Source: Escherichia coli
Lineage (GTDB): Bacteria; Pseudomonadota; Gammaproteobacteria; Enterobacterales; Enterobacteriaceae
Strand: one strand, 5' to 3'
DNA: 64,000 nucleotides
Assembly: GCF_044324875.1 (NCBI RefSeq)
Contig: NZ_CP172185.1
How positions within the stretch are numbered: position 1 is the stretch's first letter; the number at the start of each line of letters is the position of its first letter. The notes below the pieces were generated by a model. That model did not search any database. It saw only the letters and a list, made by a program, of their open reading frames with translations, and was not told the origin of the DNA. A program made the position numbers and the translations under genes. Below are positions 7,915-52,960 of this stretch, piece after piece.

Positions 7915-9757
7915 CTTTCAGGGCTTTTATCGCCGGATGTAAATCAACAGATTGTAACAGACCACCCGGCGGCGTTTTCACAAGTTGCGGACATAACCGT
8001 TCCACGTCCGCCAGCAGGGTTATGGCCTGCGCCATTGACCACTGCGCATGTTCGCTCATCAGATTTCGTGCAATCCACTGCGCAATATTGCCAGGTTCGA
8101 ATACGGACTGCTTCGCCAGGTAGCCTATCAGTTCAGGAATCAAGATTTGTAAATTTTGTTGGCGTAAGGGTAAAGGCACGGCCCTGATGGTCACATGCTG
8201 CGCATCGGACTGGAAATCAATACCCAATTCCGCCAGGGCAGACTGCGCTTTTTCTAATGCCGATTTTTCTTCGCCAGAAACTTTTAGCCGCAGCGGAATC
8301 AGCAACGGCTGGGCGCAAACTGGCGCTTCACCCGGCGTCAGTTGCGCCTGACGCAGCCAACGTTCTGCCACTGACAAGGCTAAAAGTGAAATGTTGCCGT
8401 CGCGCTCCAGCAACGCACAGTCGGAATGGACGATAGTCAGTACCCGACCAAAACTCTGACTGTTCGCCGCAAGTGCAGATTCCTGCGGTTCTGGCGCTTT
8501 TGGTTTTTGCATCGGCGCGGGCGTTTGCAAAAGCTGGCGATACACTTCACCTTGCTGTTTCTGGTAGCCTGGCTGCGCATTCGGCCAGGGGGCAGCCGGA
8601 CGACTGCCTGAGGCGGGCGCAGGAGAGTAGCGCGGAGCTACCGGCTCACGAGCTGCCGGTTCAGCAAAATGATTGCGCCCCGCCGCCACGCGGTTTTCCG
8701 GGATGGCGCGCGGTGCAGGTTGTGGTTCATCGTCCAGCGGCAGCGGCGTTTCCAGTTGCTGTTGTAGCACGCTCAGCACGCCCTGATAGATAAAATCATG
8801 CACCAGACGCGACTGATGGAAACGCACTTCGTGTTTGGCAGGGTGCACGTTGACGTCCACCTGATGTGGGTCGATCTCCAGATACAGCACAAATGCCGGT
8901 TGCTGATCGGCCCCCAGTTTGTCTTCACAGGCCTGGCGGATCGCGTGATTGATCAGGCGATCGCGCATCATGCGACCATTCACATAGCAATACTGAATTT
9001 CCGCCAGTGCGGGCGTGGTGTGATTCGGATCTGCCACCCAGCCGCGCAGCGTAAGATCGCCGTGTTGCCATTCAATCGCCAGCGCTTGTTCGAGAAAAGC
9101 GGTACCGCAAATCGCGCCTAAGCGCCGTTCTTTTTGCCCGCCTTCCGGCACTGCGCGGTACTGACGCACAATTTTACCGTTATGCGACAGGTTGATCGTG
9201 ACGTCGAAACGCGCCAGCGCAATGCGGCGGATGATCTCATCAATGTGGTTAAATTCGGTTTTCTCGGTGCGCAGGAATTTGCGCCGCGCCGGGGTGTTGT
9301 AGAACAGATCCAGCACCTCCAGCGTCGTTCCCACAGGATGCGCCGCCGGTTTTACCGTCACGTCCATATCGCGCCCTTCGGCATAGGCCTGCCAGGCTTC
9401 CTGCTGTTCTGCGGTACGTGAAGTGAGCGTCAGGCGGGAAACCGAACTGATACTCGCCAGCGCCTCACCGCGAAAGCCCAGGCTGATAATGGCTTCGAGA
9501 TCGTCCAGAGAGGCGATTTTACTGGTGGCATGACGAGCCAGCGCCAGCGCCAGCTCATCTTTTTTGATACCGCAGCCGTTATCACGAATGCGGATAAGTT
9601 TCGCCCCACCGCGTTCGATATCAATATCGATACGCGTCGCACCTGCATCGAGGCTGTTTTCCACCAGTTCTTTGACTACCGACGCAGGTCGCTCGACCAC
9701 CTCACCTGCGGCAATCTGGTTCGCCAGTTGTGGCGGTAAGACCTGAATTGGCATCAA
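7907..9757 (-). CDS. mutL: DNA mismatch repair protein MutL
   Basis: 616-aa [42 protein letters not shown]... (GHKL ATPase N-terminus). Confidence 0.95.
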
Positions 9758-30755: not shown

Positions 30756-31322
30756 TTACTTCACGCGAGAGACGTATTCACCAGAGCGGGTATCCACTTT
30801 GATGACTTCGCCGATCTGCACGAACAGCGGAACTTTAACCACAGCGCCAGTAGACAGGGTAGCTGGTTTGCCGCCAGTACCTGCGGTATCACCTTTCAGG
30901 CCCGGATCGGTATCAACGATTTCCAGTTCAACGAAGTTCGGCGGAGTAACGGAGATCGGCTGACCATTCCACAGAGTTACGATACACTCTGCCTGATCAA
31001 GCAGCCATTTCGCGTTGTCGCCAATTGCTTTTGCGTCAGCAGACAGCTGCTCGAAAGTTTCGTTGTTCATGAAGTGCCAGAACTCACCGTCGTTGTACAG
31101 GTAAGTCAGGTTCATATCGACAACATCAGCGCCTTCAGCGGAATCAGTAGATTTGAAGGTTTTTTCTACGCGAGTACCGGTCAGCAGACGACGCAGTTTA
31201 ACGCGAGCAAATGCCTGGCCTTTACCCGGTTTTACGAATTCACTCGCTTCAACCGCGTAAGGTTCGCCGTCTAACATGATTTTAAGACCAGCACGAAAAT
31301 CGTTGCTATAGTACGTTGCCAT
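30756..31322 (-). CDS. efp: Elongation factor P
   Basis: 188-aa [52 protein letters not shown]... Confidence 0.97.
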
Positions 31323-46068: not shown

Positions 46069-49000
46069 ATGGATGAAAATGCTTTAGGGTTTGCCTCATA
46101 CTGGCGCAACTCGCTTGCGGACGCTGAGTCAGGAAAGGGCAGTTTTGAACGGAAAGACGCCAAAAATTTCACTCACTGGCATGGGATAGCGGCGGGACGT
46201 CTTGACGAAGCGATTGTCAGTAAATTTTTTAAGGGAGAAAAAGACGATGTCGAAACGGTCGATGTCATCTTGCGCCCAAAAGTTTATTTCCGGTTACTGC
46301 AGCATGGTAAGGACCGTTCTGCAGGTGCGCCTGATATTGTTACCCCGATAGTGACGCCAGCCTTGCTAAGCCGTGAGGGTTTTTTATATCCGACGCCAGC
46401 GACCTCCATTCCCAGAGACCTGCTTGAACCTTTGCCAAAAGGAGCATTTTCGATTGGTGAGATTGGGCAGTATGACAAATACAAGACGACCCATACCACG
46501 TTCTCTATCAACTTTGATGACAGCGTTGATAAGACTGCCGAAACGGATGAAGAACGGGAAGAACGATATGCAGCCTTGCAGCAGGAGTGGCGTCAATATC
46601 TGGATGATTCAGAGAGGCTGCTGAAGAACGTTGCCGGCGACTGGATTAAAAATCCTGAGCAATATGAACTCGCTGAGCACGGTTATATTGTTAAAACGGC
46701 GCAATCTGGCGGTGCCAGTTTCCATATCCTTTCTCTTTATGATCACCTGCTTGTTTGCAATAAGGATGTGCCGCTCTTCAATCGATTCGCCTCGCGAGAG
46801 GTTCATGCTGCAGAGTCTTTGCTGGCCCCTGGAGCAAAATTCAGCGACAGGCTTGGACACTCCGGAGATAAGTTTCCGCTGGCAAAGGCTCAGCGCGATG
46901 CCTTAAGCCATTTTCTGGATGCTAAACATGGCGATATCCTTGCTGTTAATGGCCCTCCTGGAACCGGAAAAACCACGCTGGTGCTTTCTATCATCGCCAC
47001 GCAGTGGGCCAGAGCGGCTCTCGAAAAATCTGAGCCTCCGGTTATTATCGCGACTTCAACGAATAACCAGGCTGTAACGAACATTATTGAGGCATTCGGG
47101 AAAGACTTTTCGCAAGGTTCAGGTGCGATGGCCGGGCGATGGTTGCCAGAGCTGAAAAGCTTCGGCGCTTATTTTCCCTCAGGCAGCCGTAAAGCTGAAG
47201 CAGCCAAAAAATATCAAACTGAAGATTTCTTCAACCAGGTTGAGTCAAAAGAGTATGTAGAAGATGCACTGCTGTTTTATCTGGAAAAGGCTAAGGCAGC
47301 CTTTCCTGAAAAAGAGTGTTCATCCCCTGAAAAGGTCATTGAACTCCTGCATGGTCAGTTGGCAGCAAAATCCGAGCAACTGATAAGACTGAACGCAACA
47401 TGGCAAAAGTTAAGCCAGATTCGGGCTGCGCGTGAGCTTATTGCTAATGATATTGAGCAATATCTCAATAATTTAAATAAATTACTTTCCGGACAAGAAC
47501 AAAAAATCACTCTACTGAAGAGTGCTAAAACGGAATGGAAAAAATATCGCGCCGGTGAATCACTGATCTATTCATTATTTTCCTGGCTTCCGGCGGTTCG
47601 CAGTAAGCGACAGTACCAAATACAGCTGTTTCTCGAAGATAAATTAGGTGCGCTGATTGCAGGAAATCAATGGTCTGATCCTGAAACTATCGAACGTAAT
47701 ATTGATGGGCTGCTCAATTCCGCTGAGCGCGAGCAAACAACATACCGGCAGCAGATTGACTCCGCCCATGAAATCATTCTTAAAGAACAGCAGGCGGTTC
47801 AGGAGTGGCAGAGACTGGCTCTTGATTTAGGGTATGAGGGCGACGAGGAACTGAGCTTCTCACAGGCCGATGAACTGGCTGATACGCAGATTCGCTTCCC
47901 TGCATTTTTACTGACGACTCACTACTGGGAAGGTCGTTGGCTGATGGATATGGCCAGCATTGATGATCTGCAGGAAGAGAAGAAGAAAAAAGGCGCTAAA
48001 GGGGTAACCGCCCGTTGGCAACGTCGAATGAAACTCACTCCATGTGTGGTGATGACATGCTATATGCTGCCCGGCAATATGCAGATAAGTGAGCACAAAG
48101 GACAGCGTAAATTCGAGAAAAGTTATTTGTATGATTTTGCCGATTTACTCATTGTCGATGAAGCCGGGCAGGTGCTTCCTGAAGTGGCTGCTGCCTCGTT
48201 TGCATTAGCTAAGAAGGCATTAGTGATTGGCGATACGGAGCAGATCCCGCCAATATGGAGTATTGCTCCTGCGATTGATATCGGTAACATGCTGGCGGAA
48301 AAAATTCTGTCTGGCAGTACGCAAGAAGAGATTACCGAGAAATATACGGCAATCGCAGACCTTGGTAAAAGTGCCGCATCTGGCAGCGTTATGAAAATAG
48401 CGCAGTTTGCTTCGCGCTATCAATATGATCCCGAACTGGCTCGTGGTATGTACCTATATGAACACCGCCGGTGCTACGACAATATTATTGGATACTGTAA
48501 TACGCTCTGCTATCACGGTAAGTTGTTGCCTAAAAGAGGGCGTGAAGAGAGCAATTTAATGCCCGCAATGGGGTATCTCCATATTGATGGTAAAGGAGAG
48601 CTGGCAAGTAGTGGAAGTCGATATAATTTGCTTGAGGCTGAAACGATAGCGGTCTGGTTGGCAGAGAACCAGCAAAATATTGAAGCGCATTACGGTAAAT
48701 CGCTTCATGAAGTTGTCGGTATTGTGACGCCTTTTAGCGCTCAGGTATCCACTATCAAACAGGTGCTGGGCAAACAAGGTATCAGTACAGGCACGAATGA
48801 AAAGTCGCTCACAGTGGGCACCGTGCACTCTCTTCAGGGAGCGGAAAGAGCGATTGTGATATTCTCGCCAGTCTATTCAAAACATGAAGACGGCGGGTTT
48901 ATTGATAGCGATAACAGCATGCTGAATGTTGCAGTCTCCCGTGCGAAGGACAGTTTTCTGGTCTTCGGCGATATGGACCTGTTTGAGGTCCAGCCAGCCT

Positions 49001-49584
49001 CATCGCCACGGGGATTACTGGCAAAATACCTCTTTGAGTCAGAGAAGAATGCGCTCTCTTTTGATTATAAAGAGCGTAAGGATTTAAAAACCGCCGGGAC
49101 CAAAATCTACACACTTCATGGTGTGGAGCAACATGATAATTTCCTGAATCAGACATTTGAAAATACCAGTAAACACATCACGATAGTTTCTCCATGGCTG
49201 ACCTGGCAAAGGCTGGAGCAAACCGGTTTTCTTGATTCCATGATTGCGGCGTGTTCACGTGGAATTAACGTCACGATAGTCACTGACAGAAGCTACAACA
49301 CTGAACATAATGATTTTGAGAAGCGAAAAGAGAAGCAGCAGAACTTTAAAGCGGCGCTGGAGAAACTGAATGCGCTGGGTATTGCTACAAAGCTGGTAAA
49401 CCGTGTTCATAGCAAAATTGTTATTGGTGATGATGGTTTGCTGTGCGTGGGATCGTTCAACTGGTTTAGTGCGACACGGGAAGCGCGATATGAACGATAC
49501 GATACATCAATGGTTTATTGCGGTGATAACCTGAAGGGTGAGATTGAGGCTATTTATAATAGTCTTGAGAGGCGGCAGGTTTAG
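46069..49584 (+). CDS. Upf1-like SF1 helicase fused to a C-terminal PLD-family (single HKD) nuclease domain; candidate anti-phage defence protein with Mokosh type II-like architecture
   Basis: 1171-aa ORF. Walker [10 protein letters not shown] (aa 295-303, nt 46951-46977); Walker [10 protein letters not shown] (nt 48145-48171); helicase motifs [19 protein letters not shown] and [16 protein letters not shown] (nt 48814-48972); C-terminal HSKIVIGDD...GSFNW = H-x-K-x4-D...GSxN (nt 49408-49464). Located beside the island integrase. Confidence 0.8.
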
Positions 49585-49692: not shown

Positions 49693-51192
49693 TTATCTTC
49701 TGCCCGGAAGAATCAGAGGCTGTGGTTTCAGACTGTCTGCCGGTACATTCCTGTCTCCGTTAAAAACAATAACGGGTTCATTATCTTCGTCTGTCAGCGG
49801 ATTGAATGGCGGTATATTTTCAGTACGAATGCCGGTCAGCCACTGAAAAATACCTGCGAAATGACGGGCACTGATTTTTCTGCTGACGGACTGATGAGAC
49901 GTGATGTCACTGGCGGTAATAATCAGGGGAACGCTGTAGCCTCCTTGTATATGGCCATCATGATGAACAGGATTAGCACTGTCGCTGACCGACAGACCAT
50001 GGTCAGAAAAGTAAAGCATGGCAAAATGACGGGAGTGCCGGCGAAGGATACCATCAAGCTGACCGAGAAAGTTATCCAGTTTACTGATGCTGGCGAGGTA
50101 ACAGGCAATCTTTCGGGGATACTGCTCCAGGTAATGATTCGGCCAGGAGTTAAGTCGGTCACACGGATTCGGATGAGAGCCAATCATGTGCAGGAATATC
50201 ACCTTCGGAGAGGATTTATCCGCCAGTGCACGTTCTGTTTCCTGTAACAACAACATGTCATCCGTTTTACGGGAAGCAAAGCTGCCTTTCTTGAGGAAAA
50301 CGGTATGCTCCGCATCAGAAGCAATAACAGAGATGCGTGTATCATGCTCCCCCAGTTTTCCCTGATTGGATATCCACCATGTGCTGTATCCTGCTTTTGC
50401 TGCCAGCGCCACCACGTTGTTGCCGGAGTCAGGGTTCTGCTCATAGTCATAAATCAGTGTCCGGCTCAGGGAAGGTACGGTACTGGCTGCTGCCGATGTA
50501 TAGCCGTCAATAAATAAACCGGGAGCCGTATTCAGCCATGGTGTGGTTGGCACGGGATAGCCATATACCGACATATAATCCCTGCGCACACTCTCACCAG
50601 TAACGATAACAATCGTGTCATACAACGGTGTTCCCGGCAGGATTTTCCAGTTGTCAGCCCCGTGCTGACTCAGTTGTTTATAACGCTGCATTTCACGCAA
50701 TGTGTCAGTTGTTCCCACAACAATTCCTTTAACCATCCGCAACGGCCAGCTGTTTACAGAGCATAATACGAACAGCAGCAGTGCCAGCCAGTTACGGTGA
50801 CCGCGGTGGTGTGTCCGCCAGAAAATCACCATGAATACCAGAATCGCGGCACTGACCAGAAAATGATAAACAGGAATCATCCCGGTAAACTCTGCAGCCT
50901 CATCAGCCGTGGTCTGCAGCAACGCGACAATAAAACTGTTGTTGATTTTACCGTACGTCATACCCGCAGGCGCATACAGTGCACAACAGAACAGAAATAA
51001 CAGCGTTGTAATGGATGTGAGGGTATTTCTGTGTGCAAGGAGCAGAAGGAGAAACAGAAGCAGCACATTTCCTGTGGCATTCTTCTCAGTGTATCCGCAT
51101 GCAATTGTGGTTATCACAGAAATAACAAAAAAGAATAAAAACAATAAAATCCGGGGTGTGTCGCCCGGACAAAACAGTTTTCTGATATTCAT
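49693..51192 (-). CDS. Sulfatase-family inner-membrane protein (phosphoethanolamine-transferase-like)
   Basis: 499-aa ORF; N-terminal ~130 aa strongly hydrophobic (multiple TM helices), C-terminal domain with VTGESVRRDY and HMIGSHPNP motifs resembling EptA/OpgE/LtaS-type transferases. Confidence 0.7.
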   Translation of the reverse strand: MNIRKLFCPGDTPRILLFLFFFVISVITTIACGYTEKNATGNVLLLFLLLLLAHRNTLTSITTLLFLFCCALYAPAGMTYGKINNSFIVALLQTTADEAAEFTGMIPVYHFLVSAAILVFMVIFWRTHHRGHRNWLALLLFVLCSVNSWPLRMVKGIVVGTTDTLREMQRYKQLSQHGADNWKILPGTPLYDTIVIVTGESVRRDYMSVYGYPVPTTPWLNTAPGLFIDGYTSAAASTVPSLSRTLIYDYEQNPDSGNNVVALAAKAGYSTWWISNQGKLGEHDTRISVIASDAEHTVFLKKGSFASRKTDDMLLLQETERALADKSSPKVIFLHMIGSHPNPCDRLNSWPNHYLEQYPRKIACYLASISKLDNFLGQLDGILRRHSRHFAMLYFSDHGLSVSDSANPVHHDGHIQGGYSVPLIITASDITSHQSVSRKISARHFAGIFQWLTGIRTENIPPFNPLTDEDNEPVIVFNGDRNVPADSLKPQPLILPGRR

Positions 51193-51373: not shown

Positions 51374-52114
51374 TCAGAAGTTATAAGTCACACCAAGCAT
51401 GATGTCATGACTTTTAACATCAACTTCTGACTTATATTTATCGCCCCACTCGTCCTTGTAACTCACACTGCTGTCACCTGCATCAAGATAGCGATAGCTG
51501 AGGTCCAGAGCGATATCCGGGGTTACGTCATAGCGGACACCCGCGCCAAGGTTCCATGCGAAGTTGTCAGCAGAGCCTGAACGTGACAACGATTCGCGAC
51601 CACTGCTTCCGTACTCATAATCCCAGGTACTGATACCGGTTGTTTTCTGGTGAATTCTGGCGTAGCCAATCCCTGCAGATATCCAAGGTGTGAATGCGCT
51701 GTCATTCCGGAAGTCATAGTACGCATTCAGCATTAGTGTGTTGACTGACACCTCATTCTTCAGGTCATCACGCCAGTAACCACCTGACCAACTGTCTTTA
51801 TCTACGTTATACTTCGAATCAGCTTTTCCACGAGCGTAAAACTCCAGTTCTGTACGAACCGGAATACTGAACTGCGGATAAAAATCATAACCAGCCGCGA
51901 TACCACCACTGAATACCGTATCATGGTCATCGCCGCCTTTATACTTTGACGTTTCTTCCTCATCTCCTGACAGGAAACGCTGGTCTGAAAGTGACACCAC
52001 AGAGGTACCGGCTTTACCGGTCAGATAAAAACCGCTTTTACCTTCCTCAGCACCTGCATTTGCTGCAAATACACAGGCTGCGGCCACCACTGAAACAGCA
52101 AAAACCTTTTTCAT
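51374..52114 (-). CDS. Outer-membrane beta-barrel protein (Opa/Ail/OmpA-like)
   Basis: 246-aa ORF with signal peptide MKKVFAVSVVAAACVFAANAGA, alternating amphipathic strands rich in Y/G/D, and C-terminal ...GVTYNF (terminal Phe typical of OM beta-barrels). Confidence 0.7.
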   Translation of the reverse strand: MKKVFAVSVVAAACVFAANAGAEEGKSGFYLTGKAGTSVVSLSDQRFLSGDEEETSKYKGGDDHDTVFSGGIAAGYDFYPQFSIPVRTELEFYARGKADSKYNVDKDSWSGGYWRDDLKNEVSVNTLMLNAYYDFRNDSAFTPWISAGIGYARIHQKTTGISTWDYEYGSSGRESLSRSGSADNFAWNLGAGVRYDVTPDIALDLSYRYLDAGDSSVSYKDEWGDKYKSEVDVKSHDIMLGVTYNF

Positions 52115-52190
52115 TTCAATTATCTCCGTTATTGCTCCGTTGCTGCAAGCAGTACTCAGTGCATTTTAAAACCCGCCATGCTATAGCCTC

Positions 52191-52235
52191 AATCGAATAA
52201 AATCGATCGAATCGATCGATGATATCGATCGTCAT
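52191..52235. repeat. ATCGA(T)-rich low-complexity tract with overlapping ATCGAT palindromes
   Basis: AATCGAATAAAATCGATCGAATCGATCGATGATATCGATCG about 80 bp upstream of the OMP start codon. Confidence 0.6.
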
Positions 52236-52601
52236 TAACCAGAAATTTTTATCGTATTCAGTCAGCACAGACACAACAAATGCATGCCATGCAGGCAGCC
52301 ATGCCCCGTCGCGACAGATGGTAGCAGTGGGCTGGCGAAGAGCAGAATTAATAAAATTTGTTTATTCTGTCAGGAGATAAGGTGTCACCTGTTCATGAAC
52401 ACAATTAAGGAAGAGACATACATGAGCTGACTGGCAGTCCAGAGTGCATGCGGTTACAAGCCGGAAAGGTGAACCGGTATAACCAGTGAGCAGAGTTTGT
52501 GAAGGGGGGATATAAAAAAGCCCACTGCATGGCTGCGGGTAAAGAGTCAGTTATTTCCGGCGTTTTTCAAGGTAGTTGTCGCCTGATGTAATAAAATTAC
52601 G

Positions 52602-52960
52602 TTATGCCGCTTCTTTTTCTGGATTCAGATAAACTGCCTGAATGAGTTCCCAGTCACGCAACTGTTTGCTCCAGCGCTCAGGATGACGCTTGCGAGCTTC
52701 GCGATAAACTTTTTTTCTGGCTTCCAGTATTTGTGCATCAATTCCGCGATGGCGTTCATCCGGAGTAACATACTTAATACCGCTGTGCTTGTGTTCCAGG
52801 TTGTACCATTACGTGAACTTGCTTAACCAACTTCTGGCTTCATCTATGGTTCGAAAACCATTCTCCGGCCACCATGAACAATACTTAATCGTCCGGAAGA
52901 GCGATTCGGAATAAAGAAGTGTTACTGGCAGTTCTTTCATCGCATCAGTGAAAACCAGCA
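52602..52960 (-). pseudogene. Transposase C-terminal remnant (DDE integrase-core type, IS3-like), interrupted by a stop codon
   Basis: Minus-strand translation ...SLFRTIKY...WPENGFRTIDEARSWLSKFT*WYNLEHKHSGIKYVTPDERHRGIDAQILEARKKVYREARKRHPERWS...; no N-terminal part present. Confidence 0.5.

Follow-up and report, generated by a model that had tools for sequence, protein, structure and literature searches.

The ATCGAT/GATC array at positions 52191-52235 of an Escherichia coli sequence lies directly upstream of the gene for an outer-membrane adhesin of the Hra/Tia family, and we propose, with a probability of roughly 0.55, that it is a Dam-methylation-sensitive OxyR operator giving epigenetic phase variation of this adhesin. 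The array contains a triad of GATC sites and a perfect palindrome, it has the geometry of an operator next to a promoter and is similar to known operators, it is deeply conserved and constant in length, and alleles that have lost GATC sites occur in nature. That OxyR would be the protein bound at the array is judged from sequence similarity. That methylation would block the binding of OxyR, and that expression would be bistable, is argued by analogy with switches already described.

Results

Structure and position of the array

The array, which has no strand of its own, had been noticed in a preliminary description of the window, that is, of the whole 64,000-nucleotide stretch of DNA analyzed here. 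We re-located it in the sequence and found the letters quoted there on the + strand at 52191-52231. The description of an ATCGA(T)-based cluster upstream of the outer-membrane protein (OMP) gene proved accurate: four copies of ATCGAT lie within 28 bp (starting at 52202, 52211, 52215 and 52224), while the remaining 64 kb holds 17 other copies, and no cluster of four copies within 22 bp appeared in 300 first-order Markov simulations of the window. The distance of about 80 bp given for it agrees with our measurement, the array beginning 77 bp from the ATG, and its irregularity is reflected in the fact that TRF reports imperfect arrays alone. On the basis of the simulation and of the deep conservation described below, we rejected chance low complexity as the origin of the array.

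Three GATC (Dam) sites lie in the array within 26 bp, with spacings of 9 and 13 bp: GATC1 at 52205-52208, GATC2 at 52214-52217 and GATC3 at 52227-52230, or about −50, −59 and −72 from the predicted transcription start. This triad is located 91-116 bp upstream of the OMP ATG, adjoins the predicted −35 hexamer and falls inside OxyR-type half-sites. A three-GATC cluster as such is not rare, and was present in 31% of the simulated windows. Because it is statistically ordinary, the argument for a switch rests on context and conservation. The window's only other cluster of three GATCs within 22 bp is found at 8939-8959.

The invariant core of the element is a perfect 19-bp palindrome, ATCGATCGA-A-TCGATCGAT, at 52202-52220 with its centre at 52211. 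It is the window's only perfect 9+1+9 palindrome, and two GATCs are placed symmetrically inside it. A scan for terminators flagged a hairpin at 52220-52202; this is merely the palindrome, located upstream of the promoter, and we rejected it as a terminator. In addition, a small conserved block, TTATCG, occurs at 52249-52254, about 20 bp past GATC3.

The adhesin gene and its surroundings

The presumed regulated gene is encoded on the − strand at 51374-52114, within an E. coli island. Its product, an outer-membrane adhesin of 246 aa belonging to the Hra/Hek/Tia family, matched the Pfam family OMP_b-brl (PF13505) at 5.9e-22. The locus is 100% identical to that of E. coli EC21Z-147 (NZ_CP101210), and related genes were found in 1393 of the 5426 complete E. 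coli genomes; more distant members of the family are annotated as Tia by RefSeq. The OMP gene is followed by a terminator-like hairpin (51296-51272) and then by a phosphoethanolamine transferase gene (49693-51192, −). Because this hairpin and a separate promoter-like site precede the transferase gene, co-transcription of the two genes is unlikely, and the regulated unit probably consists of the OMP gene only. The same transferase gene follows the Hra/Tia-family OMP at most loci (noted at L003-L006, L023 and L028). Also near the adhesin locus, positions 46069-49584 (+) encode a protein of 1171 aa, in which an SF1 helicase (AAA_11/AAA_12) is fused to a C-terminal PLD-family nuclease and which looks like a defence-type protein.

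To the right of the array the island is decayed. No intact gene is present between 52240 and 53440, where RefSeq has an iron ABC permease pseudogene fragment, followed by PhoX and IS remnants. A small + strand ORF at 52219-52380 was dismissed, as it is not conserved in tia-type loci. We also considered a relic agn43-type promoter firing rightwards (+), an idea based on the resemblance of the region to the −10, operator and leader of agn43 and on a weak IS102 match. Conservation to the right of the array fades within about 25 bp, and this candidate was rejected; since the genes to its right change from locus to locus, we assign the element to the minus-strand gene on its left.

Predicted promoter

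Within 52000-52700, a promoter scan predicted only one sigma-70-like site, at 52192-52163 on the − strand. It consists of the −35 hexamer TTGAGG (52187-52192) and the −10 hexamer TAAAAT (52163-52168), separated by an 18-nt spacer, and it places the predicted transcription start near 52156.

Similarity to OxyR/Dam operators

Switches of the agn43, gtr and opvAB class have OxyR half-sites that match ATAGnTnnnAnCTAT at 7-10/10 and are paired at N7 or N17. The array contains two half-sites, at 52202-52216 and 52215-52229, that both score 8/10. The second is the 15-mer within a GATC-bracketed OxyR-type half-site, GATCGATGATATCGATC (52214-52230), which is the window's only exact match to GATCGNTNNNANCGATC; about 0.13 matches would be expected even with one mismatch allowed. 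In other words, a pair of GATCs 13 bp apart brackets a half-site (GATCGnTnnnAnCGATC), exactly so at 52214-52230 and with one mismatch in tia-type alleles (GATCGACAAAATCGATC). The same GATC-bracketed form is found in GATC-II/III of K-12 agn43 (GATCGTTTATATCGATC) and in the OxyR(A) and OxyR(C) sites of P22 gtr (GATCGGTAACAACGATC and GATCGCTTGTATCGATC, respectively). Elsewhere in the window, the sequence GATCGGTATCAACGATT at 30905-30921 differs from this signature by one mismatch.

We also scored the array for complete OxyR sites in two spacings. In the N7 register, a 37-bp OxyR-type motif at 52193-52229 matches the consensus at 13/20 positions and is centred on the same position as the palindrome. 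The best N7 score in the array is 14/20, joint top of the window, and the agn43 operator itself scores 14/20 at N7 by a count on the K-12 sequence; 24 scored positions on both strands of the window reach 13/20. In the N17 register, a candidate promoter-proximal half-site, ATAGCCTCAATCGAA (52183-52197, 7/10), which overlaps the predicted −35, is paired with 52215-52229, and the resulting composite at 52183-52229 scores 15/20 against the Toledano consensus and is the window's sole site scoring at least 15. Across alleles the OxyR consensus scores are moderate, at 12-16/20, and in tia-type alleles the promoter-proximal or outer quarter-sites are both weak and little conserved. Because ATCGAT is both periodic and self-complementary, several registers fit, and consensus scores alone are not decisive.

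Positions 52193-52231 align with the K-12 agn43 operator without gaps at 29 of 39 positions, and the best of 100 simulated windows reached 25. The sole Rfam match in the region was IS102/IsrC, which covers the agn43 leader including the operator; at 19.7 bits (E 0.37) this match is weak and falls well below the gathering score, so that we take it as a hint only.

LysR-type transcriptional regulators (LTTRs) act from a recognition site together with an activation site, and the half-site centres of the array, at about −66, −44 and −34 from the predicted start, match this layout. The N7 register, from about −37 to −73, suggests the classic OxyR/LTTR activation position, and the N17 register, in overlapping the predicted −35, suggests repression. 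These two registers point opposite ways, and either state of the array could be the ON state.

We also compared the array with another Dam-dependent type of switch, in which two GATC boxes lie 102 bp apart in Lrp sites and a PapI-like co-regulator takes part. The GATC spacings of 9 and 13 bp do not agree with this Pap-type Lrp/Dam arrangement. For the pap GATC box and the Lrp core, the window holds 841 and 1255 positions, respectively, that match at least as well as the best in the array, which is thus unremarkable in this respect, and scans with CRP, Lrp and pap-box motifs gave no notable matches at the array.

Conservation and distribution

A homologous upstream region was found in 1745 of the 5426 complete E. 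coli genomes. These upstream regions sort into several classes whose flanks diverge, and two blocks remain fixed: the predicted −10, which every paralogue has in its upstream region (conservation 0.93), and positions 52202-52231, the core of the array (0.89-0.96). The core motif TCGATCGAATCGATCGA..A.ATCGATC is maintained from one setting to the next, as is the 9/13 GATC spacing, and the intact motif is located upstream of hra-type genes, of tia (PapRG-04-4 and KMS2005) and of other members of the family (Sanji, BEC1 and M19). Strains in which the array is intact include EC21Z-147, APEC BEN2908 and ABU 83972. The inner 17 bp of the palindrome (52203-52219) are identical in 11 aligned short three-GATC sequences, with FEX669, at 52204, as the sole exception.

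At hek-type loci (L006, L022 and L027), the core lies about 140 bp upstream of an unrelated gene of 122 aa that precedes the OMP gene. A relic tia 5′UTR at these loci suggests that the promoter cassette was captured by recombination. This arrangement is found at 1732-2270 of L006, 786-1325 of L022 and 491-1029 of L027, and the 122-aa gene in it has no annotated function and no Pfam match.

The cassette is not confined to E. coli or to the OMP family. In Yokenella regensburgei ATCC 49455 (L019, 4739-4830), an identical 28-nt GATC core accompanied by a −10-like box precedes, by about 130 bp, unrelated coding sequence for secreted proteins, namely two small ORFs of 154 aa and 120 aa that have signal peptides and match no Pfam family. 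A scan of species-representative genomes with the 28-nt core returned Yokenella and two E. coli-like contaminant contigs alone. The latter are L017, a 454-bp contig labelled Mesorhizobium caraganae (coverage 0.76), and L018, labelled as a Bacteroidetes MAG. Both are E. coli-type sequence, one with a P24-type cassette and the other with a tia-like OMP and a transferase gene, and they probably represent contamination or misbinning in public assemblies.

Natural variants

Substitutions among near-identical alleles are few, and they fall in the Dam sites: GATC1 is changed to TATC (CGAT to CTAT) in 29 genomes (for example strain 26561), and GATC2 is changed to GATA (ATCG to ATAG) in class B alleles (for example CP8-3 and 181.1), which occur in roughly 40 genomes as estimated from identity bands. 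In one lineage, comprising 75 genomes, all three GATCs are lost; strain 720632 has a GATC-free allele. E. coli LH50-c (NZ_CP100500.1) carries two hra upstream copies, at 947472-947577 and 4965711-4965816, and they differ in that GATC1 is intact in one and TATC in the other. At position 52182, just outside the candidate ATAG half-site, the window has T and the other sampled hra-type alleles have G (GCTATAG versus GCGATAG).

With the CTAT and ATAG changes, the loss of a Dam site coincides in each case with the gain of an OxyR consensus element. The consensus-creating substitutions are, however, all G:C to T:A transversions in ATCGAT and could reflect mutational bias instead of selection. Because any G:C to T:A change inside ATCGAT yields ATAG or CTAT, this bias confounds a formal test of ‘consensus-improving’ substitutions, and such a test was abandoned.

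A second kind of variation concerns spacing. Long-form tia alleles (JSMCR1 and TL-14) carry a 9-bp insertion with a fourth GATC exactly at the centre of both the palindrome and the 37-bp motif. Their GATC spacing is 9/9/13, and two 8/10 half-sites are placed at N16 (16/20), near the N17 of gtr and opvAB. Such a central insertion would be tolerable for a flexible tetramer and not for a simple dimer on a palindrome. It amounts to one extra helical turn, which is also what separates the N7 from the N17 spacing of OxyR, and the array (9/13) from agn43 (19/13).

Discussion

Alternative explanations

The strictest conservation coincides with the 19-bp palindrome and its two symmetric GATCs, not with the full OxyR motif, and the OxyR consensus scores are moderate. 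The main alternative that this raises is that the operator is Dam-sensitive but serves another regulator in place of OxyR, either an LTTR such as HdfR (Salmonella std) or an island-encoded factor, bound to TCGATCGA-N-TCGATCGA. The switch would then follow the same epigenetic logic with a different protein. The GATCs could even be incidental to a TCGATCGA palindrome read by some other protein. Further Dam-sensitive regulators, such as HdfR and Fur, are known (PMC6735912, PMC3145626). Nevertheless, we consider this explanation unlikely. The array is specifically similar to three proven OxyR/Dam operators, the central 9-bp insertion would break a simple dimer site and fits the two spacing modes of OxyR, and the natural substitutions yield ATAG and CTAT, which are OxyR consensus elements.

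A static promoter element whose GATCs are always fully methylated is a still less likely explanation. Such an element might be a SeqA cluster, an upstream promoter element or a plain oxidative-stress operator. GATC1 and GATC3 share a helix face at a distance of 22 bp, an arrangement favourable to SeqA; many GATC clusters are no switches, as the frequency of three-GATC clusters in simulated windows illustrates; and peroxide induction is the usual role of OxyR sites so placed. However, a static element leaves unexplained why the half-sites have the suboptimal CGAT/ATCG form that makes Dam sites, and why common natural alleles have specifically lost single GATCs. The resemblance, moreover, is to phase-variable OxyR operators in particular.

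We regard as quite improbable a Fur-plus-Dam switch like that of the sci1 T6SS promoter in EAEC, in which a Fur box would overlap GATC3. In hra-type alleles, the sequence GATATCGATCGTCATTAAC (52221-52239) matches the 19-bp Fur box at 14/19 positions, which is the window maximum, shared by five positions, and sci1 offers a precedent (PMC3145626). In contrast, tia-type, long-form and Yokenella alleles score 9-12/19 while the GATC triad is invariant, and lineages differ in what follows GATC3 on the right.

The preliminary description had suggested phase variation of the OMP by slipped-strand mispairing, or repeated binding sites. Phase variation and repeated binding sites are still plausible, but slippage as the mechanism is not supported. 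TRF reported on the array a 9-mer in 2.1 copies, a 4-mer with 79% matches and 20% indels, and a 13-mer in 2.3 copies, none of which is a perfect multi-copy tandem repeat of a short unit. Comparison of tract length across genomes, the constancy of which the preliminary description had itself named as evidence against its proposal, showed no variation: in about 110 E. coli genomes with this upstream allele family, all full-length matches among those listed are exactly 106 bp for the 106-bp query, and no length polymorphism among related strains was seen in them. The 9/13 GATC spacing is likewise the same in Yokenella and in front of paralogues whose products share only 60% identity. Length changes are limited to old lineages, namely a 4-bp deletion in the GATC-free lineage and the 9-bp insertion in some tia alleles; the variation seen otherwise consists of point substitutions in GATC sites. 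Thus, although the array resembles a short tandem array with its 2.1 copies of a 9-mer, and old paralogue lineages contain either 2 or 3 of the 9-bp units, one lineage having the 4-bp deletion, a contingency locus in which changes in repeat number alter promoter strength is almost certainly not the explanation, because tract length is constant and the repeat is imperfect, very short and upstream of the predicted −35, outside the promoter spacer and the ORF, and because the extra unit of the long-form alleles has diverged (TGTGATCAT), as expected of an old event and not of ongoing slippage.

The proposed switch

Based on these comparisons, we propose that the array is a cis-regulatory operator in which a triad of Dam sites is set within OxyR-type (LysR-family) half-sites directly adjoining the predicted −35 of the adhesin gene on its upstream side. 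On the model of agn43, P22 gtr and opvAB, OxyR and Dam would compete for the array after replication. If OxyR bound first, the GATCs would be shielded from methylation; if Dam acted first, OxyR would be excluded from the methylated array. Each state would be self-perpetuating and inherited, so that a clonal population would split into adhesin-ON and adhesin-OFF cells. In the gtr system, methylation of GATC abolishes OxyR binding (PMC2909390). The N17 spacing is the extended spacing of reduced OxyR, as opposed to the canonical N7 motif (PMC2909390, PMC4856963). In opvAB, half-sites that bear GATC cannot be perfect consensus, and moving them closer to it locks the switch ON (PMC4856963). Promoters of this type are also described as showing natural variation that is structured (PMC12902445).

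The OxyR/Dam type of switch is well known, and its extension to the Hra/Hek/Tia/Hes family appears to be unreported. A search of the searchable full-text literature, outside which subscription-only papers lie, returned nothing relevant on Hra/Hek/Tia/Hes or adhesin/invasin genes in connection with Dam, OxyR, GATC or phase variation, and recent reviews name agn43, gtr, opvAB and pap alone. To our knowledge, proven OxyR/Dam switches are few, namely agn43, gtr, opvAB and phage Mu mom.

A broader proposal, for which we would put the odds a little short of even, is that the Hra/Hek/Tia/Hes adhesin-invasins constitute a previously unrecognised Dam/OxyR phase-variation regulon carried on a portable promoter cassette in roughly one-third of complete E. 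coli genomes. If this is true, the cassette has also been put to use in front of unrelated genes, as in the hek-type arrangement and in Yokenella. It would then exist in two spacing isoforms, one with GATC spacing 9/13 and N7 and the other with 9/9/13 and N16, which could favour different conformations of OxyR. In addition, common ‘locked’ alleles would have arisen from single substitutions that remove a Dam site and perfect an OxyR element.

In ExPEC, APEC, ETEC, EAEC and LEE-negative STEC, the proteins Hra1, Hek, Tia and Hes act as adhesins, invasins and autoaggregation factors (PMC5539235, PMC8286834). If their expression is bistable, this could help to explain variable or absent phenotypes in laboratory assays, and it would imply heterogeneity of the immune-evasion type in a family considered as antigens. 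It would also mean that a second autoaggregation system follows the epigenetic logic of antigen 43. Moreover, the alleles would then form a natural series for the tuning of a switch, comprising the intact triad, the loss of each single GATC, the GATC-free form and the four-GATC form. The prediction derives from sequence, and it is specific and concerns a widely distributed element; existing strains and long-read methylation calls would allow a direct test.

Comparison with known systems

Simple-sequence-repeat contingency loci, such as those in the promoters of Neisseria and Haemophilus OMP genes, share with the array a short repeat near the promoter of a surface-protein gene. In contrast to them, the array has neither a perfect multi-copy repeat nor length polymorphism, and it lies outside the promoter spacer.

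The array closely resembles the agn43 (flu) operator, in which three GATCs also lie in an OxyR-type site and with which the ungapped alignment is 29/39. GATC-II and GATC-III of agn43 align exactly with GATC2 and GATC3 of the array, and the same 13-bp pair brackets ATCGnTnnnAnCGAT. The product of agn43 is likewise an autoaggregating surface adhesin carried on islands (PMC8286834). However, agn43 has its operator downstream of the transcription start, where OxyR is a repressor only, whereas the array is inverted with respect to its gene and is located upstream of the predicted −35. The distance from the first to the second GATC is 19 bp in agn43 and 9 bp in the array, or one helical turn less. 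The proteins also differ, agn43 encoding an autotransporter and the array's gene an 8-strand-type beta-barrel.

The gtr operators of P22 and Salmonella resemble the array in that GATC pairs 13 bp apart bracket OxyR half-sites of 8/10. Their sites lie upstream of the −35 and overlap it, and OxyR activates or represses depending on which half-sites are occupied. The gtr operator comprises three half-sites at N17 and four GATCs in two pairs over about 80 bp, whereas the array has three GATCs in 26 bp and overlapping registers.

Salmonella opvAB also has its operator upstream of the −35, with the proximal GATC near −50 (GATC4 of opvAB is at −49.5). It differs in having four half-sites and four GATCs over about 130 bp, and it has no homology to the array beyond the motif. 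Like the array, opvAB has GATC-bearing half-sites that fall below the consensus, and natural alleles of its promoter vary at recurrent positions.
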